64,000 bases of DNA, taken from sequence record PQ818763. The stretch is one strand, 5' to 3'. The first letter of the stretch is position 1. Every line of letters starts with the position of its first letter. This document shows, piece after piece, positions 36,586-64,000 of this stretch. The notes beneath the pieces are model-generated. The model had not been told where the DNA came from and searched no databases. It saw only the letters and a list, made by a program, of their open reading frames with translations. Made by a program: the position numbers and the translations under genes. Origin of the DNA: Shigella phage ShigP1.

Positions 36586-37112
36586 TTATTCTCCTAACAG
36601 CTTACGGATTTCATTGCGGAAGTTATCATACTCTTCAGGGTATTCAAACCCACACTCAAGAAGGGCGTAGTGAACAACCTTCAACAAATCCTGAACCTTA
36701 TTCTTATCTTTGTGTCGATAAGCGTATTTGATCATATTGGTTTGTTGGAAGTTCAACTGAGGGTTTGCATGGTAAAACTCAACAGGCTGAATGATTTTAG
36801 ATTCAGGGTTATAGTGTGCACCCCCAACCATAGTGTCTAAAGCTGGACTTCTTTTGCTGGTTTGTTCAGTTGTAGGCTTAAAACTGACTACAGGAACAGA
36901 GGAATAAATTGGATACTCTTCACCTACTGGCGGCTTTACTATCAACCTTTTCATTGCATACCGAATTTCTGTATCAGCAGAACACGAAGAGATTTCTTCA
37001 ACAGATTTACGATAGCTATCAATAACTGCACGTAACATAGAAATCGTTCTGGTCTTATCTCTTAATTTGTGACACAGATCAGCAATCTCTTCTTCCATAA
37101 GGTTAAACTTAT

Positions 37113-37122
<10 letters not shown>
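36586..37122 (-). CDS. Hypothetical protein
   Basis: 178 aa; no motif confidently recognised. Confidence 0.4.
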
Positions 37123-46784: not shown

Positions 46785-46966
46785 TTACGCTCTCCAATTT
46801 CTTCGTAATGACATTCAGTAGTTAAACAATCTTTACAGATTGCTGTGTAAACCCTGACGTTAGTAAATCGTTTGTTCTTCCCTTTGGTTGGAGAGCCTTT
46901 AGCAAGCTCTCTGATAACCTTGTTACTTAAGTGAAGGTTTGTCCCTTCACATCTAGAGCACTTCAT
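46781..46966 (-). CDS. Small zinc-ribbon protein
   Basis: CSRCEG ... CKDCLTTEC (two CxxC pairs) in 61 aa. Confidence 0.4.
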   Translation of the reverse strand: MKCSRCEGTNLHLSNKVIRELAKGSPTKGKNKRFTNVRVYTAICKDCLTTECHYEEIGERK

Positions 46967-47282
46967 GGTTCATATCTTTATGAAGTCTATAAACAGCTGT
47001 CGCCATACAAGCAACAGCTTCATTATGCGGGAGATGCATACCTGTAGAACCATCCCAATCCCTGAACTCATTGTCAAAGACTCCGGTAGGCTCTTGATAC
47101 AAGGCTTGCAACTCCACTAGATCATTAGCAACTTGTTGCCATTTATCATCAGACCAGATAGGGTCATCCAACCAGTAATACAAATAGGAATGGATGATCA
47201 ATTGCCTTCTGTGCCGATTAATTACTTCAGCGGGACTTATCTCACTTCCATTTGAAGTCCTAAATGTATTACTGTCAATCAT
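46953..47282 (-). CDS. Hypothetical protein
   Basis: ORF of 109 aa. Confidence 0.4.
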   Translation of the reverse strand: MIDSNTFRTSNGSEISPAEVINRHRRQLIIHSYLYYWLDDPIWSDDKWQQVANDLVELQALYQEPTGVFDNEFRDWDGSTGMHLPHNEAVACMATAVYRLHKDMNHEVL

Positions 47283-47533
47283 TTCACAACCTTAAATTTG
47301 AATGTTGTTGGGTGATAATAATGCAACCTGTTGATGGTGTGCTTGATTTCAAGGTATGTCCTACAGGAGTGGCACATAACATGAGACAAACCAGTCACAG
47401 GATTGGGCTTAAAATTGATGATAGGCTTCTCTTTCTTACAGAAGCTACAGACTTTCTTTTCCATCTTTTCTCCAGTGGTCAACGAATTGCTGAAACACTT
47501 TATGGTCGAATGTGAAACCTCGAGCAATCCCAC
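47279..47533 (-). CDS. Small Cys-rich protein
   Basis: CSFCKK ... CHSCRTY motifs. Confidence 0.35.
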   Translation of the reverse strand: MGLLEVSHSTIKCFSNSLTTGEKMEKKVCSFCKKEKPIINFKPNPVTGLSHVMCHSCRTYLEIKHTINRLHYYHPTTFKFKVVK

Positions 47534-47678
47534 ACTCTACGAAAGTAGAAGGCATATAGTCTACATCATCTTTAGATGTATGACCATAAACTTGAATAAG
47601 CTTTTTAATCTTATCCTTCTCTCTTCGAGGAAGCATTCTAAATGCCTCCTGAATATCTGTAATATGTTTGATTTTCAT
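47445..47678 (-). CDS. Small hypothetical protein
   Basis: ORF of 77 aa. Confidence 0.3.
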   Translation of the reverse strand: MKIKHITDIQEAFRMLPRREKDKIKKLIQVYGHTSKDDVDYMPSTFVECGIARGFTFDHKVFQQFVDHWRKDGKESL

Positions 47679-47694: not shown

Positions 47695-48351
47695 TTAACT
47701 CTCCAAAGTTTTCTTCAGAGCTGCCCACGAGATTGGGTAGAGTTTAGCCATCTCTTCATCTAGAGATTTAGCAAACACTCGAACTTCATATTGAGCGTGA
47801 GAGGAGAGTCGCTGACGACACAACTCAAACCAGCCGTACAAAGAACCGGTCCACACCCACTCAGTGATCATCCCCTGAGGAAGAACAAATCGAGCTTGCT
47901 CTGGTGCAATAAATTCAATCAACTTGTCATATGCTGCTAGAGAAGCTTCATATGAATCGTTAATCAGCATTAATGCTTCAGCTCGCTCTCCGTCGATGAG
48001 TTGAACCCCTGAACCTGCATGGAGGTCCGAAGGTCTCGCAAAAATCTCTTTAGGGATGAAGACTTCAACTGCTCCATCTTTATACCGCCGGGACATTTCG
48101 TTCCACGAGAATCCAACCTGATGCTTCTGTAGTTGACGAGCGATTGCAATTGGAGCCTTACAACGAAAGGACACTTGTGGATGACGGAACGGAGTGCAGT
48201 GTTTCTCTCTAGCCAAGAAGTTAATCAGCCGAGTATCACGATCATTCAAATCACCCTCTCGTACAACACCAAAAGAAACTCTTGCAGCATTAACAACAGT
48301 TTTATCACTGCCCATAGCTTCAATCAATGTTGCTTGCAATTGTTCATTCAT
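47695..48351 (-). CDS. thyX: ThyX-family (flavin-dependent thymidylate synthase) homologue with a non-canonical active-site motif
   Basis: HCTPFRH, ARQL, SRRY, EQARFVLP and AQYEVR align with ThyX blocks, but the RHR signature reads KHQ (ARQLQKHQVGFS). Confidence 0.65.
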   Translation of the reverse strand: MNEQLQATLIEAMGSDKTVVNAARVSFGVVREGDLNDRDTRLINFLAREKHCTPFRHPQVSFRCKAPIAIARQLQKHQVGFSWNEMSRRYKDGAVEVFIPKEIFARPSDLHAGSGVQLIDGERAEALMLINDSYEASLAAYDKLIEFIAPEQARFVLPQGMITEWVWTGSLYGWFELCRQRLSSHAQYEVRVFAKSLDEEMAKLYPISWAALKKTLES

Positions 48352-48823
48352 ACTTCAACTTCTCCTTGTTATAAGCAATCTCTGCTTCTTCTGGAGTATG
48401 GAAAGTTCCTAAATGCTTAGTCTTTCCGTTAACTCCGATGATAGCTCTGAATTTTGTACCACTAGCCGTCTCTCTGATGTAAACACCCATTGGGAGTTTT
48501 CCAGCTTTTCCGGCTCTGTTGTATTGTTTTCTGTTATGACAGTTTGTAGATGGGTCAACATCTCTTAGGTTTTTAAGAGAGTCATCCAGTTTAATCTGGT
48601 TGATGTGATCAATCTCAAACTCAGGCATCTTTCCATAAGAGAAAAACCAAGCTAATCGACATGCTCTGTAAGATTTCCCTTCATAATAGATGTACCTGTA
48701 GCCTAATGTTGAGATACACCCAGCAATATTCCCTGATACTCTCCGACCTTTAGTGTTCTTCCACCTAAAGATTCCAGTATCAGGGTCATATGCTAGGTCT
48801 TCTTTTATCTTATCAGTTAACAC
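48344..48823 (-). CDS. HNH homing endonuclease with AP2 DNA-binding domain
   Basis: EIDHINQIKLDDSLKNLRDVDPSTNCHN (HNH_3) and GVYIRETASGTKFRAIIGVNGKTKHLGTFHTPEEAEIAY (AP2). Confidence 0.75.
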   Translation of the reverse strand: MLTDKIKEDLAYDPDTGIFRWKNTKGRRVSGNIAGCISTLGYRYIYYEGKSYRACRLAWFFSYGKMPEFEIDHINQIKLDDSLKNLRDVDPSTNCHNRKQYNRAGKAGKLPMGVYIRETASGTKFRAIIGVNGKTKHLGTFHTPEEAEIAYNKEKLKYE

Positions 48824-49088
48824 CTAAAGCTGTATCCAAAAATGCTTTCAGGTTTGCTTCGGTTTGCATACCAGAGAGGCTATAGTGTGCACCACTGTTA
48901 CGGTTAGGTACAACGAAAGCAGGGATGCTACGAACCCCGTACTTAACAGCTTGTTCACGACCATCACCTTCAAGGATGTTAATCTCTTCCACTTCTACAT
49001 CAAACTCCTTAACAACCTTCTCAAAGGTAGGAGCCATTGCTTTACATGGAGCACACTGATCGCTATAAAACTTAATTACTTTAGACAT
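48813..49088 (-). CDS. Thioredoxin-like protein (CAPC active site)
   Basis: FYSDQCAPCKAMAP and a cis-Pro region (SIPAF) in 91 aa. Confidence 0.7.
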   Translation of the reverse strand: MSKVIKFYSDQCAPCKAMAPTFEKVVKEFDVEVEEINILEGDGREQAVKYGVRSIPAFVVPNRNSGAHYSLSGMQTEANLKAFLDTALGVN

Positions 49089-49337: not shown

Positions 49338-49916
49338 TTAGTAAGACACGTCACCACTTGAATGGGACATGTTGCTCTTGACGAAGTAGCAATACTTGCC
49401 AAGACCTTCATTTATTTCTTGAAGCATACTCTGGTCAACTGGATAAGTGGCTAAATCGCCATCAAACTCATCCATCTTCTCAATAATACACATCAATGTC
49501 ATGCACATATCAGAGAGCATACCGTCCATGTCTAGATCAGCATTACCCTCTGAGAACCAAGCATGAGATAGGTAGTTAGCTGCTGTAGCGTCCACTTTAA
49601 CACAGTGGTAACGCATACGTTCAGCAATACGATCTCCTACTTGTCGTGCGTAATCTTCCAGCTCATCAAACATACCATGAACACCCTGAAATCCTGAACC
49701 AGAGACGTTCCAGTGGTAGTTTTTAGCTTTGATATGCAAGAGTTCCATGTTAGCTTGTAAGCAGCTCAGGATGTGTTCTAGGCTGTTTCCACTAATCATA
49801 CCTTGCATCGTTTCAAGGCGAGAGATTGATAGGTCGGACCGGTCTAACATATTGTAGCTGTCACGACCAATCTCAGGTAAATCAAAGACATTCTTATGCA
49901 TTTGGGTTTTCTCCAT
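49338..49916 (-). CDS. Dps-like ferritin-fold protein
   Basis: KNYHWNVSGSGFQGVHGMFDELEDY...DRIAERM aligns with the Dps ferroxidase-site region ([20 protein letters not shown]...AER in E. coli Dps, from memory). Confidence 0.65.
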   Translation of the reverse strand: MEKTQMHKNVFDLPEIGRDSYNMLDRSDLSISRLETMQGMISGNSLEHILSCLQANMELLHIKAKNYHWNVSGSGFQGVHGMFDELEDYARQVGDRIAERMRYHCVKVDATAANYLSHAWFSEGNADLDMDGMLSDMCMTLMCIIEKMDEFDGDLATYPVDQSMLQEINEGLGKYCYFVKSNMSHSSGDVSY

Positions 49917-57893: not shown

Positions 57894-59924
57894 TTAACCT
57901 CTATTCAATGAACATTTAGGAGAATTACAATAAACTTGATTCATAGAACCAAGCGTACAACTTTCAGCATCGCGCCACGGAATCTGCTTAAAACACTCTG
58001 AGCAGTATCCGAGGGTTGACCACATTGCTTTGGTGAAGTCAGTGCTTCGGTTTCCGTCGAAGCTGACGACAGTTTTGCGGAGAGCTGTTCGTGATTCAGG
58101 AAACACACCTGCTTTCTCAGCAGGTTCCTCCTTTTTTGGCTTAGTTGAGATTGCAAAAATACTGTTGCTACGTTTCTCAACATAAGCATCAACAACATCC
58201 TCCAGAGTGATGCCTGTCTGTTTCGCTGAGGAAGGTAATACAGTCATACGACCGATCATATCTTCAGTTACACGTAAAGCGAATTCAGGACGACGGGCGT
58301 TTGTTGTATCTGTTGCTTTAATCCAGACATAACCATCTTTGATCGTAGCATTAGACACTTTCTTCTTTACTTCTACAGCGCAGACTTTACAGATATCTTC
58401 ACCACGAAGACGACTAAGTTCATCATCGAACTCATTCTCTGTTTTAACTTCACCGCAGATTTCACAAACACCAATAGGAGTTTCCTCCTCTTCTTCCTCT
58501 TTAGGTTTAGTCAAACCTTCCAGACATTCAGGATGCCAATAGCACTGATATGCGAAGACTGCTTTAGGTGCATCCTTCCAATCAATGTGCTTATCACAAC
58601 CACCACAATCACCATGAGAGTGCGCTTCCCAGAATTTACGAGTGATAGTAACACCATTCTTGTTGACGAAACTATCATTCATATCAAAAGGGATATCATC
58701 ATCGAAGTCAGCAGTAGTTGACTCAGGCTCCTTTTTCTCCAGAGATGGGTCAACAAAACGACCTGCTGTGATCACTAAACGGACCATAGCATTGACTTCG
58801 GAGATGCAGGATACTGTCCCACGGTAAACAATTTTAGGGTCTTTCAGGGCATCCTGATAAGCCTTAATGTCTACGTTATGAACATCACCTTCGATATACT
58901 CTTGAGATTTCTCATCGTAGATATAACCAATCATCTTACCACGAGAAGGAACAGCACCGGCAGTTGCATAAGGAACAAACTCATGCGGAGTGATTTCCAC
59001 AGTCATATCGCGGCGAATATCAATGTTTCGATCGCTTGCGATTTTGTTTTGACTTACCACTGCGTTTCTTCGACGAACGTCTGCCGCTGTCACACCCGGC
59101 TTCGTGTCGTAAGGATTGCTTGTACTGCTTTTTGAGGAACTTTGATAGTTGCTTTGGCTGTAATTGTTCGAGTAGTAATTGCCCCAACGATTGACTACCG
59201 TAAAAACCGGAAGCTCGTGGGCGACCTCTTCAACCAGTGTCATGCTGTTATTAGACATGTCAAAGATATACTCTGTACCAACTTTACACTCAAAATGCTC
59301 ATCAATACGGTTCTTGTGAGACTTCGAACGCTTCAGAATCCACATCAGCATATCTTCTTCAGAAGCGCCAAACCAATCTCTGTTACAACGTGCGAGATGG
59401 AAAGGACGCTCTTCGTTACGAATGATATGAAGGCGGTTATCAGAAGCATCATGCCAGATTAAGGTGAAAGCACCATCCAGCTTTTGAATAGTCTCTGCTG
59501 CACCAATAGTGTTAATAGAGTGGCAGATGTTCTCACTATCTACCTCGAAGTTTTTACTGTCAGGTAACAGGTCTTGGTCCATCAAGGTTCCATTATGAAC
59601 CAGAGTGATGTTACCATGTTGGAAAGGATGGGCGTTCTTGGCGTTAACTGCACCTTTCGTTGCATGACGACTGTGACCAACAATCCATGAAGGTGCTACA
59701 GTGTAAGCTGTTTCACCAGTGGTGTGCTTCTTGTACTCATCTTGTAGGATGAATGCGAAAGAAGGAAGAGCTTCTTTATAAGTGAAGACTTCCTTAGTAC
59801 TTTTACGCTGACCAAAGATACCGGAGGAATGTTGTCCTCGGAATACTCCAGCATAAAAGAGTTGGTTAAATACGTCTAAATCAGTGCTTGACAGATTACC
59901 GCCAGCTAATACGATGCCACAAAT
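57894..59924 (-). CDS. Class-II (Ntn) glutamine amidotransferase domain fused to a Cys-rich C-terminal domain; probable non-AUG (ATT) start
   Basis: Manual upstream translation gives (K)I-CGIVLAGG...FRGQHSSGIF...VGHSRHATKGAVNAKNAHPF...LVHNGTL...SDSEN, the class-II GATase signature with catalytic Cys 2 codons after a stop; AGGTGG lies 8 nt before the ATT. Confidence 0.65.
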   Translation of the reverse strand: MCGIVLAGGNLSSTDLDVFNQLFYAGVFRGQHSSGIFGQRKSTKEVFTYKEALPSFAFILQDEYKKHTTGETAYTVAPSWIVGHSRHATKGAVNAKNAHPFQHGNITLVHNGTLMDQDLLPDSKNFEVDSENICHSINTIGAAETIQKLDGAFTLIWHDASDNRLHIIRNEERPFHLARCNRDWFGASEEDMLMWILKRSKSHKNRIDEHFECKVGTEYIFDMSNNSMTLVEEVAHELPVFTVVNRWGNYYSNNYSQSNYQSSSKSSTSNPYDTKPGVTAADVRRRNAVVSQNKIASDRNIDIRRDMTVEITPHEFVPYATAGAVPSRGKMIGYIYDEKSQEYIEGDVHNVDIKAYQDALKDPKIVYRGTVSCISEVNAMVRLVITAGRFVDPSLEKKEPESTTADFDDDIPFDMNDSFVNKNGVTITRKFWEAHSHGDCGGCDKHIDWKDAPKAVFAYQCYWHPECLEGLTKPKEEEEEETPIGVCEICGEVKTENEFDDELSRLRGEDICKVCAVEVKKKVSNATIKDGYVWIKATDTTNARRPEFALRVTEDMIGRMTVLPSSAKQTGITLEDVVDAYVEKRSNSIFAISTKPKKEEPAEKAGVFPESRTALRKTVVSFDGNRSTDFTKAMWSTLGYCSECFKQIPWRDAESCTLGSMNQVYCNSPKCSLNRG

Positions 59925-60003
59925 TTTCTAATCCACCTGAAGGGTAAACCCTTTCATCTAATTAACCTTTAAATTGTGCCCCTTTATCAGAGGCACCCAT
60001 TGA

Positions 60004-61107
60004 TTACAGCGCTTGCTCTAACTGATTTTCCAGATGGTCTGGAATGTACCCTGTGATATTGCTATCACTGTGACCTGACTCACGTAGTAAGTCAAAAATA
60101 GCACGGATACGCTGTTCTGGAGCGTGTCTTACTTGAGATAGGTCTGCTGTACGAAGCATAACCAAAATCTCTTGGTACAAGTTGTTAGCGTTCCCTCGGA
60201 CATACCCAAGGAAGCCATAGAAGTCTGACATAAGACGTAAGTCAACAAGAGCCTCTCCGTTGGAGTTGGTTCGACGTAAACGAATACGACCAGACTGTTC
60301 TACTTCATGAGAACGGCAATACAAAACATCACGGGCCATACAATATCCTGAATGCAAATCAGATTCATCCAGATTGTAATCCAGAGGAAGGTAAGGAAGC
60401 ATTGGGGCAAATCGTACAGTATTTAAGTGCTCAATAAACTGATCATTGCTCATATCTGCGTTATCTAAAGCCAGCTTCTTCAACATCAAGAAGCGGTTAA
60501 CCAGATTGAGAAGTTGACCACGTTTCCACTTAGGCTCACTGATACGGAACTCAATTGAACCGTATTGGGCAAGTGGCAGAAGGTTCAGAGATGTATATTT
60601 ATCCCATGAACGAACCAGACGGTTGAAGAATTCTTCACCATCGTAGTTAAATGCGTCAGAGGCATTCATTACCTGTGCTTGTACCACTGCAAACGCAGGG
60701 CAGAAATTGCTACGGTAACGATGGTAGCCTGAACACTTGAACAGCATCTTTTCATAGAAGGTCCAAGCAAGGATGGTCTTCTTGAGGATATTACTATCAG
60801 CATCCCTCATATCCATATGAACGTGAGTAGAGCAACGCCAAGTCCCCTCGGCGTGCGATTCAGCTACTGCTTCACTCAGGTTGTTGATAGCGTCTAACAA
60901 CTCCTGTCCGTTGTAAGGTCGTGAACATACCATTTCACAACCGTTACGCAGGGAACCATCCTCTGTGCAATCCCACATATCTGCTTCGATATGTTCAGAA
61001 CCTTCGAGTTCAAGTTCAATACCGACACCGCACTGAAGTGCAATTGAACTATGCGCCTCAGTTAAACGACCTTCTCGATATCCAAAAGTTTGCGCTACAG
61101 TTGTCAT
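60004..61107 (-). CDS. Amidoligase-like protein, paralogue A (glutamine-synthetase/GCS2-like motif set)
   Basis: GIELELEG, STHVHMD and YGSIEFRIS occur in the same order as the equivalent motifs in 61731-62537; family assignment is from memory. Confidence 0.45.
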   Translation of the reverse strand: MTTVAQTFGYREGRLTEAHSSIALQCGVGIELELEGSEHIEADMWDCTEDGSLRNGCEMVCSRPYNGQELLDAINNLSEAVAESHAEGTWRCSTHVHMDMRDADSNILKKTILAWTFYEKMLFKCSGYHRYRSNFCPAFAVVQAQVMNASDAFNYDGEEFFNRLVRSWDKYTSLNLLPLAQYGSIEFRISEPKWKRGQLLNLVNRFLMLKKLALDNADMSNDQFIEHLNTVRFAPMLPYLPLDYNLDESDLHSGYCMARDVLYCRSHEVEQSGRIRLRRTNSNGEALVDLRLMSDFYGFLGYVRGNANNLYQEILVMLRTADLSQVRHAPEQRIRAIFDLLRESGHSDSNITGYIPDHLENQLEQAL

Positions 61108-61721
61108 AACGAATCCACCAACGTAATATTATAATTGCTAAGGTTTTCAGAGATGTGATGAAAATGCTCCAGAAGTCGCATCGGTTGTTGACCATAAGAG
61201 TCACGAGGTGCTTCCAGATCTACCTGACCTACCAGTGCACCTTTATAATGCACTTTACCATCTGTAGGATTGATGTAAATATAACGAGTAACCAATCCAT
61301 CAAATTCAGGATTGAACAGACTGTAAACCATTTCACCAGAGATCGAACGACCAATTCCCGGAGCGTTTCGAATCTTGTTACCCATCAAACCCTTCGCTCT
61401 CTGACGAACAGGGTTGATATGAGTCCAGCTTACAGTGTTACCGTTATGGAACAGATAACCAACATCAGGTGATTCAAGAATCAAGGTTGGGTCGAACACT
61501 GGAATATTCATCGTAGTGTTTCGGAGATTTCCATGCTCGTTCTTGTACCACTGCTCTACAACAAAATACAGAGCCTGTTCTGCTTCATGCGAGAAGTCAT
61601 CGCTGCGGAAGTTACCGCTCTGCTCAACACCAATCACAAAACACGGAAGGTTGATATTGCCTGCTCGTTTAGCAATCCATGTACCATTATAGTAATGAGA
61701 AAAATCAGCTACTAAGCTCAC
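61104..61721 (-). CDS. Hypothetical protein within the ligase cluster
   Basis: 205 aa; ATGA overlap with the downstream gene. Confidence 0.4.
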   Translation of the reverse strand: MSLVADFSHYYNGTWIAKRAGNINLPCFVIGVEQSGNFRSDDFSHEAEQALYFVVEQWYKNEHGNLRNTTMNIPVFDPTLILESPDVGYLFHNGNTVSWTHINPVRQRAKGLMGNKIRNAPGIGRSISGEMVYSLFNPEFDGLVTRYIYINPTDGKVHYKGALVGQVDLEAPRDSYGQQPMRLLEHFHHISENLSNYNITLVDSL

Positions 61722-61730
61722 GATAACCTC

Positions 61731-62537
61731 TTATGCTACCTGAAGGAGTTTGATCTGCTGGTCAGCTTCTTTAACGTTGTTCCCGTTAATGATTTCATGA
61801 AGCTTCTCAATCGGAAGGCGAGAGTGCAATGCCATCAGGGTGGACATATCACACTGCTGAACAACCTTGTCAACCTGATCGTAAACAAACTTACGGTTTT
61901 CACGATCACTAATCCAGAAGTTAGACAGAGAACGGTATTCAATACCATAGTCTTTATAACGGATTGCAGATGCTTTACCGTAGAGTTCTTTACGGCGAGT
62001 ATCTTTGTCCATAATTACTGCTGGGAGAGACAGGAAGTAGTCACACAACACACCCAGCATCATCTGAGTTTGCAGAGTGATATCCAAAGCACCAACTACG
62101 CCAAGATGTACGTGACCACCGGCAGTACGAAGTCCCTTATTCTGAGAAGTCGGGGATGGGTTTTTCTGACCAGTGAAGGCGTTGAAATCAGGAGTGCACC
62201 CGAAGATGAACGCTGATTCGTTAAAGGTCTTCATCTCTTCTTCAGTGAAGATGTGAGAGCTAACACCCGGAGCTGTTTCCATGTCCAGTTTGTTCAGGAC
62301 ATTATTGGTGAGATCAATACCACGTTGCATGTTATCGTTAAACGCTTCAAAACCGCTCTGTGGGTCAATATCAAACTCAGCCAGTACGTTGTCCTCTTGG
62401 AGACGAACATCCTTAGCCAGAGCGATCTTATCGTCCTTAGAGCAGCCTAATAAACCGGCTACAGAAGTGATGATACCATTACTAGTACGAACGAACATTT
62501 CAGGGTCAGAGCCGATGAGGAATTTGCGCTTAGTCAT
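61731..62537 (-). CDS. Amidoligase-like protein, paralogue B
   Basis: IGSDPEMF, GGHVHLG and YGIEYRSLS motifs. Confidence 0.45.
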   Translation of the reverse strand: MTKRKFLIGSDPEMFVRTSNGIITSVAGLLGCSKDDKIALAKDVRLQEDNVLAEFDIDPQSGFEAFNDNMQRGIDLTNNVLNKLDMETAPGVSSHIFTEEEMKTFNESAFIFGCTPDFNAFTGQKNPSPTSQNKGLRTAGGHVHLGVVGALDITLQTQMMLGVLCDYFLSLPAVIMDKDTRRKELYGKASAIRYKDYGIEYRSLSNFWISDRENRKFVYDQVDKVVQQCDMSTLMALHSRLPIEKLHEIINGNNVKEADQQIKLLQVA

Positions 62538-63501
62538 TGTAATACTCCACTAGTTCAGAAAAGAGAGATGAGATTGTGTTACCAACTTCTTCAAGAGTAA
62601 GACCGGAATCTGCTCCAGTTCTTTGAATCAGTCGGGATGTAAAGTTTTGTACCGTAATGTTTCCCAACTTGTCGTCTATTGCTTCACGTTTGTGACCATA
62701 ACAGTTGGACCAGAGTCTTAACCACTCTGACATTGTTTCATACTCGTCTGGGTCTTGATCTTTAGCACGAGCAAATCTTCGTAAGGCATCTTGGTTGTGG
62801 TTACGAACATAACCATTCTCATTGTCGCCAACACCGAAGGGGTTTTGAACCCATACTTGCTTCGTATATTCATCAGAGTCTACAACCAAAGGAAGGAAAG
62901 CTGCTGCTGACATATTGTTGTTAATAACAATAGAGGTGCTCTCGCTACTCCCATTGGCTCTTCCTCGTTGAGACCACCCACCGAAGAAGTCACGACCCAA
63001 CCCAGCTAACACTAGAGCGATGCCGATGCGTTTACGCTTCAGCCACTCTTCCCTGTCTTCAATTCCTTCTGCTAGGAAATCCATTCCACGATATTGCCCT
63101 TCCAGAATACTACGGAAGAGCATAAGTCCTGTGAAGATCTGATCTGCTGGATGCTCACGAAGATTGACAGCAACACTGTTCGCTGAAGTGATAGTAAATA
63201 CATCACGATAGCAAGACATAGAATTCATAATGTCTGCTGTTTCAATCAAGTTCTTTTCAATATCAGATGGAACATGACCATGAAAAGAGTGGGTCCAGTA
63301 ATTCAACATCTCCAATTGCAAGTTAATGTCACGGTTGAAGCGTTTATGGCGCCCATCTTCCATTACACATTCGTCATTAACATCATATACGACTTGACCT
63401 TGCATGTAGTTGTGGATACCGAAGCACCCACGACCTAAGAACTTCTGTTCCCCTAAATCCTGTTGAAGATTAAGAGGTACGATCGTTGTGGAGATTGACA
63501 T
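62530..63501 (-). CDS. Hypothetical protein within the ligase cluster
   Basis: 323 aa; 8-nt overlap with the downstream gene. Confidence 0.4.
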   Translation of the reverse strand: MSISTTIVPLNLQQDLGEQKFLGRGCFGIHNYMQGQVVYDVNDECVMEDGRHKRFNRDINLQLEMLNYWTHSFHGHVPSDIEKNLIETADIMNSMSCYRDVFTITSANSVAVNLREHPADQIFTGLMLFRSILEGQYRGMDFLAEGIEDREEWLKRKRIGIALVLAGLGRDFFGGWSQRGRANGSSESTSIVINNNMSAAAFLPLVVDSDEYTKQVWVQNPFGVGDNENGYVRNHNQDALRRFARAKDQDPDEYETMSEWLRLWSNCYGHKREAIDDKLGNITVQNFTSRLIQRTGADSGLTLEEVGNTISSLFSELVEYYND

Positions 63502-63511
63502 AACTAACCTT

Positions 63512-64000
63512 TTATTTTCCTAAAAATAATCCGCTCATAATACCATCCCACTCAGAGGACGGAATCACTGAATACTCCGAACTTTGGTCCAGAGTTCCAC
63601 TACTAAATCGCTGAATGATGTTGTAGATGTTGAACAGGTCTTTAGCCTCGGCACGAATGCCGTAGATTAACCTGTTAGCTGTTTTCTCATTTTTAGACAC
63701 GCGACGGGTAAAGTTAACCAAAAGATTATCACCTTTAAGTGTCTCTGACCCGTCTTTTACTAGATCGGGGTGCATCACTGGCAAGAACATTGAGTTGTTA
63801 ACTCGTAATTCTGCTGTTTCATCATTCTCGTAATGAATCCACTTAAAGTCTTCATCACGGAAATGACCGCATCCATCTCTATATGACTGTTGACGCCAAG
63901 GCACTTGAAATGCTTCAGCGTATTTATCAGCCATGCCGACTGTAAATAGCGACGCTGGGAAGATACAAGCATCCCAATCGTTACCAACCAGAGTTGCTTT
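63512..64000 (-). CDS. Hypothetical protein, probably truncated at the window edge
   Basis: The frame stays open upstream of the track Met to position 64000 with no SD before that Met. Confidence 0.35.
   Translation of the reverse strand, partial: KATLVGNDWDACIFPASLFTVGMADKYAEAFQVPWRQQSYRDGCGHFRDEDFKWIHYENDETAELRVNNSMFLPVMHPDLVKDGSETLKGDNLLVNFTRRVSKNEKTANRLIYGIRAEAKDLFNIYNIIQRFSSGTLDQSSEYSVIPSSEWDGIMSGLFLGK

Follow-up and report, generated by a model that had tools for sequence, protein, structure and literature searches.

A ThyX homologue reading KHQ at the RHR signature in a Kuravirus phage is probably an active thymidylate synthase of a large, little-studied subfamily

The ThyX protein of Shigella phage ShigP1 lacks the RHR motif of flavin-dependent thymidylate synthases and reads KHQ in its place. 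The best explanation, to which we give a probability of roughly 80%, is that this protein is an active flavin-dependent thymidylate synthase belonging to a large and ancient subfamily in which the RHR motif has been remodelled. Such an enzyme would use FAD to convert dUMP, CH2-THF and NADPH to dTMP and THF. Its catalytic activity is predicted from homology, fold, retained catalytic residues, selection and the genomic contexts of its relatives. Judging from sequence comparison, KHQ can be regarded as the normal signature of a very large and little-studied ThyX branch that extends across phages and bacterial chromosomes.

The window analysed here (the whole 64,000-nucleotide stretch of record PQ818763) is the genome of a Kuravirus coliphage (phiEco32-like, Gordonclarkvirinae). 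It shares 95-96% nucleotide identity with phages Ptacy1532, TH06 and PGN6866, and 90-93% with Paul, ES17, SGF2 and NJ01. The gene and its key elements are as follows:

47695..48351, minus strand: thyX, a 218-aa flavin-dependent thymidylate synthase homologue of the KHQ/SRRY subfamily (Pfam, TIGR02170, AF2 model, dN/dS)
48362..48367, minus strand: Shine-Dalgarno sequence AAGGAG, 10 nt 5' of the thyX ATG (direct sequence reading)
48082..48126, minus strand: variant ThyX signature K76-H77-Q78-V-G-F-S-W-N-E85-M-S87-R88-R89-Y90 (alignments and conservation counts)

The reading frame opens with ATG, and the opposite (plus) strand holds just short ORFs of 49-95 aa, none of which found any support. 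The first-pass annotation had described the product as a ThyX homologue, and full-length profile matches above curated cutoffs bear this out. Pfam Thy1 (PF02511) matches residues 8-206 over profile positions 1-190 of 191 (E=2.7e-43; 148.4 bits against a cutoff of 24.8), while the NCBIfam equivalog TIGR02170 (thyX) scores 129.3 bits against a cutoff of 87.9. ThyX enzymes act as homotetramers whose active sites form where subunits meet; an AF2 model of the monomer, built on 40 homologues, has a mean pLDDT of 95.4 and a pTM of 0.89. When this model was compared with the PDB using Foldseek, the top 50 matches were all T. maritima ThyX (TM 0.78-0.82, E ~1e-17), which places the protein in the ThyX fold. 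In those records of relatives that annotate this stretch, the orthologue is mostly named thymidylate synthase or ThyX; a literature search for phiEco32 together with ThyX returned nothing. The gene is already known and annotated, and is best filed as an ordinary thymidylate synthase from an under-characterised subfamily.

The variant signature is readily located by alignment. In phmmer comparisons with solved ThyX structures, the query segment ARQLQKHQVGFSWNEMSRRY pairs with ARQWFRHRIA-SYNELSGRY of T. maritima and ARQWFRHRTA-SVNEISGRY of T. thermophilus. K76-H77-Q78 (nucleotides 48118-48126, AAG CAT CAG on the minus strand) occupies the position of T. maritima (Tm) R78-H79-R80, as the earlier claim that KHQ replaces both arginines of RHR had it. 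One residue is inserted after this tripeptide, and the protein reads KHQX8S rather than the canonical RHRX7S, the ThyX signature of Myllykallio 2002 as quoted in PMC2826268. In addition, R88 is a new arginine at the position of Tm G89, giving SRRY instead of SGRY. The possibility that an intact RHR lies elsewhere was also examined, and the observation stands: the tripeptide is absent throughout ShigP1 ThyX and in all 120 of its closest homologues.

Outside these changes, the active site is largely that of a known ThyX. T. maritima ThyX (TM0449; PDB 1O26, 8REO) and T. thermophilus ThyX (PDB 6J61) have the same fold, length and domain as the ShigP1 protein (TM 0.82, 31-33% identity), and Tm residues H53, R74, Q75, E86, S88, R90, Y91, E144, R147 and R174 are retained in ShigP1 and identical in these enzymes. 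The dUMP-binding residues are all kept (R72, Q73, E85, S87, R89, R154 and R181, corresponding to Tm R74, Q75, E86, S88, R90, R147 and R174). The other residues of the extended motif, H51, S87, R89, Y90 and R181 (Tm H53, S88, R90, Y91 and R174), are likewise present and essentially invariant in the subfamily. Differences from the two solved enzymes comprise the change from RHR to KHQ, the one-residue insertion, arginine for G89, tyrosine at the R165 equivalent and arginine for E58. At the FAD site, Tm R78 is replaced by K76, H79 is kept as H77, R80 is replaced by Q78, and R165 (R190 in M. tuberculosis, Mtb) corresponds to Y172, a position that varies across the subfamily.

Among the 120 closest homologues, which range from 90% down to 53% identity, KHQ is found in 119, and the remaining one has KSQ. 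The block around the motif is near-invariant in this set and reads ARQLxKHQxGFSWNExS[RM]RY[KR]D. The orthologue in phage Paul differs at 81 nucleotide positions and at just 8 amino-acid positions (dN/dS 0.06, dS 0.62), and strong purifying selection therefore acts on ShigP1 thyX. Given the presence of the motif in 119 of 120 homologues and this low dN/dS, KHQ is the product of neither chance nor decay. Three homologues carry HNH-type inteins inserted exactly within the variant motif (KHQSGF / CLTGDT...VVHN / SWNERS), and inteins usually occupy conserved functional sites.

The extent of the subfamily was assessed with an exhaustive HMMER scan covering 1.84 billion representatives of 50%-identity clusters, which recovered 347 clusters at E<1e-30 and 3856 at E<1e-10. 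Counts per position come from the 121-124 alignable best subfamily representatives. Lysine (94) or arginine (26) fills the Tm R78 position in 120 of 121, and the H79 position holds histidine or serine. The R80 position is hypervariable, with glutamine (66) followed by T, K, V, H, M, E, N and others, and arginine in only four. The one-residue insertion (xG) is general among these representatives, and the Tm G89 position is arginine in 115-118 of 121-124, giving SRRY. H53, Q75, E86, S88, R90, Y91, E144, R147 and R174 are each kept in at least 118 of 124, and R74 in 109 of 124; in solved ThyX structures, the retained residues contact uracil, the dUMP phosphate, folate and the flavin ring.

Loss of the third arginine and gain of SRRY also coincide in independently sampled sequences. 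KHQ with SRRY occurs on a Sphingobium plasmid, while the N4-like vibriophage VBP47 and Rheinheimera phage Barba1A combine SRRY with KHK. Bacillus phage Finn, Streptomyces phage Spelly and an S. aureus plasmid have KYV or KYA with SRRY, again with the third arginine lost. RHR-type samples, namely T. maritima, T. thermophilus, two Borrelia species, cyanophage S-ESS1 and a Xanthomonas phage, carry S[GA][RC]Y. Mycobacteriophage Myrna and Gordonia phage Kenosha also combine RHR with S[GA][RC]Y, yet the insertion is already present in both.

These patterns suggest how the cofactor site may have been remodelled. In canonical enzymes, the RHR motif hydrogen-bonds the AMP phosphate, the ribityl chain and the FMN phosphate of FAD, and its first arginine makes further contacts with the isoalloxazine and with dUMP (PMC6514825). 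The guanidinium of R78 in reduced T. maritima ThyX faces N1/C2=O and stabilises the anionic FADH- (PMC11940539). Lysine at this position is a conservative replacement, and Lys76 would keep the role of the first arginine by placing a positive charge opposite N1/C2=O of the reduced flavin and contacting dUMP. His77 would be retained in its function, and the third arginine, an FAD-phosphate ligand, given up. Arg88, located in the active-site loop, may supply the lost charge with the aid of the one-residue insertion; the covariation described above makes it the likely candidate for the FAD-phosphate ligand that replaces R80. With two canonical FAD-phosphate ligands gone (R80 and Tm R165 / Mtb R190), cofactor binding must differ from that in known enzymes. 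Across the subfamily, the third arginine and the phosphate ligand from the second subunit (Tm R165 / Mtb R190) are dispensable, whereas R88 is both new and fixed; in our reading, the pocket for the ADP half of FAD has probably been built anew. A search of the PDB found only RHR-type ThyX, with the motif peptide giving nothing better than T. maritima, and no published enzymology was found for any KHQ/SRRY-type ThyX.

KHQ-type genes are not confined to phages. A scan of one genome per species with a single exact peptide pattern, [VIL]ARQL[GVA]KHQ, found at least 44 loci, a lower bound, some of which lie on short or phage-like contigs. Two apparently cellular examples were discarded: a locus in a 'Rickettsiales' MAG (L029) and one in a 'Prochlorococcus' SAG (L039) both proved to be on myophage contigs. 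Others lie on long cellular contigs. For example, on a 1.79-Mb Spirochaetia chromosome, the KHQ-type thyX is flanked on one side by genes for citrate synthase, an aldo-keto reductase and a short-chain dehydrogenase, and on the other by dihydroorotate dehydrogenase (pyrD) and an OMP-decarboxylase/phosphoribosyltransferase fusion (pyrF/E). The gene lies between 2-oxoacid dehydrogenase E1b/E2 and an MFS transporter in SAR202 Chloroflexota, and between AcrB/HlyD and IspH/MlaA in Nitrospinota (Nitrospinaceae). Poribacteria also carry it on long cellular contigs. Synteny of the flanking genes holds across different species within all four lineages, and the divergence of ThyX is within or above the range of its neighbours; in SAR202, thyX is the most conserved gene of the locus. 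A vertically inherited KHQ-type ThyX beside pyrimidine-biosynthesis genes is most simply the thymidylate synthase of the cell.

Plasmids provide a further setting. On staphylococcal and Exiguobacterium plasmids, a thyX with K-Y-V and SRRY partners the trimethoprim-resistance gene dfrE within a Tn3-like element, a pairing that represents a folate/thymidylate context. The staphylococcal plasmid thy beside dfrE was considered as a validated member of the variant type and set aside; it had been assayed solely for synergy in trimethoprim resistance, and none was seen. Borrelia burgdorferi and B. hermsii have thyX genes of demonstrated function. Both are canonical RHR types and are uninformative about the variant motif.

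Relatives of the KHQ/SRRY type in phages include Salmonella phage 7-11, N4-like vibriophages, Rheinheimera Barba phages and marine myophages. Together with their bacterial counterparts, they share a conserved core and the pattern [KR]-[HS]-x-x-G-x-x-x-[NS]-E-x-S-R-R-Y, with identities of 39-62%, and the public phage and plasmid records of such genes that were examined are annotated as thymidylate synthase. The Kuravirus/7-11 clade differs from other members in having K91 after the tyrosine (SRRYKD), in contrast to SRRYVD elsewhere. Three residues of an 'R..KQGS' loop (R104, K111 and Q112) have also been lost from this clade. Other subfamily members conserve that loop, as do the ThyX proteins of T. 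thermophilus and Borrelia, although it is absent too from the best-studied enzyme, that of T. maritima. Non-standard signatures may have been noticed before, as the title of a 2004 paper reportedly refers to 'distinctive ThyX motifs' in Trichodesmium. By description, the Trichodesmium ThyX has an intein alongside its non-standard motifs, a combination reminiscent of the KHQ-type homologues that carry inteins.

Other explanations for the variant motif can be weighed against an active thymidylate synthase. Gordonclarkvirinae are reported to be strikingly resistant to restriction-modification systems and have no known modification pathway (BASEL-2 study, PMC11990801), which gives some appeal to the idea of a ThyX-fold enzyme with an altered product. 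Such an enzyme would transfer the folate methylene to C5 of dUMP via flavin and release, for instance, 5-hydroxymethyl-dUMP by hydration of the exocyclic methylene intermediate. The product would enter DNA, perhaps to be decorated by the amidoligase/ATP-grasp/amidotransferase cluster, and resistance would be explained. Avoidance of target sites was dismissed as a cause of resistance, since the window contains 12 EcoRI, 27 EcoRV, 9 EcoKI and 113 EcoP1 sites, approximately the expected frequencies; this presence of relevant sites speaks for the altered-product reading, as do the losses in the R..KQGS loop specific to the Kuravirus lineage. Amidoligase and amidotransferase genes also co-occur with thymidine-hypermodification genes in viral contigs (PMC8989533), and a cluster of GGACT, ATP-grasp, GATase, Amidoligase_2 and COOH-NH2-ligase genes is conserved at 55331-62537. 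Of nine ORFs scanned between 52770 and 63934, however, six match GGACT, ATP-grasp-like, GATase, Amidoligase_2, COOH-NH2_lig and 3'-5' exonuclease families and three are unmatched. A Pfam scan of these nine found no aGPT-Pplase and no 5-hmdU DNA kinase, and the set of dUMP hydroxymethylase, 5-hmdU DNA kinase and aGPT-Pplase that makes up the 5-hmdU route was not found among them; outside 52770-63934, the check for hypermodification genes relies on the RefSeq annotation of a relative. In phages with hypermodified thymidine, ThyA-family dUMP hydroxymethylases add a one-carbon unit to C5 of dUMP, but their fold is unrelated to ThyX. Closer in type is gp130 of phage SP-15, a second Thy1 homologue hypothesised, and only hypothesised, to be an hmdUMP synthase (PMC5977210). 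KHQ/SRRY itself cannot be the determinant of such chemistry, being common to chromosomal housekeeping genes of several phyla and to many unrelated phages, and the residues for methylene transfer and reduction are intact (H53, S88, R90, Y91, E144, R174). A homologue of the phrog_4452 'anti-restriction nuclease' directly downstream of thyX offers another route to resistance. The suggestion of altered chemistry feeding a base modification, made in the first-pass annotation, is not supported, on several grounds: the motif is shared by a huge subfamily that includes stable chromosomal genes, the uracil, dUMP-phosphate and flavin-ring contacts are all retained, and none of the nine ORFs in or beside the cluster matches a hallmark thymidine-hypermodification enzyme. 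Altered chemistry is unlikely on this evidence. Slimmer still are the odds of the specific proposal that a Kuravirus-type ThyX, marked by KHQ/SRRY and by its missing R..KQGS loop residues, makes a 5-substituted dUMP (5-hmdUMP, for instance) that enters DNA and is perhaps elaborated by the cluster. Literature searches turned up no paper on which nucleosides make up Kuravirus DNA.

Two further explanations are more improbable again. Replacement of both signature arginines that bind the FAD phosphates, along with loss of the R165 equivalent, might be taken to indicate an inactive relic, as had been proposed, or a non-catalytic nucleotide-binding or regulatory pseudo-enzyme that no longer binds FAD. 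Against such decay stand the dN/dS of 0.06, the variant motif in 119 of 120 homologues, catalytic residues conserved over hundreds of 50%-identity clusters, inteins that target the motif, and a stable chromosomal position in bacteria. In addition, the fold of the high-confidence AF2 model is indistinguishable from that of active ThyX. Strict conservation under purifying selection is difficult to reconcile with an inactive protein, and we regard this reading as very improbable. A flavin-dependent C5-methylase acting on a different nucleotide (UMP, dCMP, or a di- or triphosphate) seems equally remote. Its model would be PolB of Streptomyces cacaoi (PDB 4P5A), a UMP-methylating ThyX homologue with the same fold and the same flavin- and folate-dependent C5 methylation, which is a detectable relative at E=5e-17, and the dCTP deaminase encoded nearby is evidence that dC nucleotides are handled by the phage. 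PolB, however, is more distant, takes a ribonucleotide substrate and belongs to an antibiotic (polyoxin) pathway, and the query is far closer to genuine thymidylate synthases (2e-30, 1e-23). Both arginines that read uracil (R90, R174) are kept, as are S88, R147 and R74, which bind the monophosphate; an enzyme for cytosine would presumably call for an acidic or amide residue where R174 stands.

The surroundings of the gene in ShigP1 are in keeping with a thymidylate synthase. Three further genes of nucleotide metabolism or replication share its leftward block:

50912..51445, minus strand: dCTP deaminase (Pfam DCD 3.6e-34; TIGR02274 107.6 bits against a cutoff of 92.8; phrog_1663)
36589..37116, minus strand: DUF3310 protein, named 'nucleotide kinase' in relatives (87% identical to MN05 gp026; Pfam DUF3310 2.8e-7)
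48813-49088, same leftward block as thyX: thioredoxin

The DUF3310 gene lies further along this replication and nucleotide-metabolism block than the others. A dCTP-deaminase-like gene had been reported near thyX from the first reading of the DNA, and its identity is secured by the DCD match and by the TIGR02274 score above cutoff. The DUF3310 protein, which we take to be comparable to the T7 gp1.7 kinase, would likely perform the step from dTMP to dTDP. The thioredoxin was considered as a partner of ThyX and dropped, as nothing beyond adjacency supports the pairing. In the proposed route, the phage dCTP deaminase would produce dUTP, host Dut would convert this to dUMP, ThyX would form dTMP, and either the gp1.7-like kinase or host Tmk would yield dTDP. 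ThyX would then be one step of a phage-encoded route that raises the dTTP supply for a genome of 42% GC, the value measured for the window. The host genome has a higher GC content than that of the phage, and a route from dCTP to dTTP, which we infer for ShigP1, makes sense for a 42% GC phage in such a host.

This route also bears on a published suggestion for these phages. The BASEL-2 study takes the dCTP deaminase and the nucleotidyltransferase next to it as grounds for speculating about dU-DNA, and makes no mention of a thymidylate synthase (PMC11990801). A conserved and strongly selected thyX, along with a dCTP deaminase and a kinase that together would lead to dTTP, argues against dU-DNA in Kuravirus. 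Should the Kuravirus enzyme nevertheless release a 5-substituted dUMP, thymidine hypermodification would have a starting enzyme that uses flavin and the ThyX fold, and the resistance of Gordonclarkvirinae would be accounted for.

In summary, the KHQ/SRRY branch appears, from its sequences and their genomic settings, to be a functional housekeeping enzyme. The RHRX7S signature is still used to define or filter ThyX (e.g. PMC2826268), and this practice misses a very large branch that is mostly viral or marine. The differently built FAD-phosphate site predicted for this branch matters for studies of the ThyX mechanism and for inhibitor work, and the pairing of dCTP deaminase with ThyX, possibly extended by a kinase, bears on how thymidine supply and the suggested dU-DNA of Kuravirus phages are understood.

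Several small genes surround the variant thymidylate synthase gene thyX of ShigP1, and a cluster that may bear on DNA modification lies further along the same strand:
46953-47282, minus strand, a 109-aa ORF with only an Nlig-Ia domain (E=3.6e-34)
47445-47678, minus strand, a 77-aa ORF directly downstream of thyX that matches phrog_4452, 'anti-restriction nuclease' (E=1.5e-31)
48344-48823, minus strand, a 159-aa HNH_3 homing-endonuclease ORF between the thioredoxin gene and thyX
49338-49949, minus strand, a 203-aa protein that matches ferritin/Dps-like proteins weakly, under NCBIfam cutoffs
51455-52825, minus strand, a 456-aa protein adjoining the dCTP deaminase gene that matches phrog_12715, 'nucleotidyltransferase' (E=1.5e-244)
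55331-62537, minus strand, a conserved GGACT/ATP-grasp-like/GATase/Amidoligase_2/COOH-NH2 ligase cluster

The HNH_3 ORF, which overlaps the start of thyX by 8 nt, is a mobile insertion, since an unrelated 204-nt ORF takes its place in the related phage Paul, and phages Ptacy1532 and ES17 likewise carry an HNH gene there. In relatives, the 203-aa protein is called a 'DNA-binding protein', and the 109-aa ORF a 'DNA ligase', a role ruled out by a length far below that of a ligase. In NAD-dependent DNA ligases, Nlig-Ia forms the N terminus and binds NAD+.

HNH sequences are also found inside some ThyX homologues. Three of these (P0122, P0133 and P0254, from the scan of cluster representatives) contain HNH-containing inteins exactly within the variant motif. 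Their N-exteins end in ...KHQSGF (or KHYVGA), the inteins run from C to VVHN, and the C-exteins start with SWNE or CWNE.

The ThyX family varies outside this motif as well. The clade of Kuravirus and Salmonella phage 7-11 has F104, H111 and A/S/D112 (window ~48016-48042, minus strand), whereas all others in the KHQ/SRRY subfamily have R, K and Q at these positions (the 'R..KQGS' loop), as do the Thermus thermophilus and Borrelia enzymes; T. maritima ThyX similarly lacks the loop motif. A further type has diverged beyond KHQ. In phages Finn and Spelly and on the Staphylococcus aureus plasmid pNTUH_1027, K-Y-V/A replaces RHR, so that the signature His is also gone; SRRY is present, together with an insertion of 7-14 residues. 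The plasmid-borne genes of this type are partnered with the trimethoprim-resistance gene dfrE.

Some ThyX-bearing contigs are binned as bacterial. L039, from a 'Prochlorococcus' single-cell genome, carries a gp32-like SSB gene, and the L029-type contigs (L059-L063), from a 'Rickettsiales bacterium' bin, encode a clamp loader and a 2OG-Fe oxygenase as well as PhoH and Cpn10. L029, L039 and L059-L063 are T4-like marine myophage DNA, either mis-binned or from an infecting phage.

Regarding base modification, the BASEL-2 study ties the 51455-52825 gene to possible DNA modification (PMC11990801). Its product matches the Pfam PolyA_pol head domain only weakly, below threshold. The 55331-62537 cluster includes a gamma-glutamyl cyclotransferase-like GGACT member, a 563-aa GATase-domain protein and a COOH-NH2 ligase of the phiEco32 type; a scan of nine ORFs within or next to it gave no match to aGPT-Pplase or 5-hmdU kinase, hallmarks of thymidine hypermodification.

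Across the whole window, some restriction sites are strongly avoided: CCWGG has 2 sites versus ~80 expected, GATC occurs at about half its expected number, and PstI, SacI, KpnI and BamHI sites are absent. For EcoRI, EcoRV, EcoKI and EcoP1, site numbers are close to expectation. BASEL-2 describes this phage group as resistant to restriction-modification systems in general, individual systems being unnamed in the portion drawn on here (PMC11990801). The 77-aa ORF had no match in a Pfam search; as a phrog_4452 homologue, it is a possible alternative source of restriction resistance that would involve no base modification.
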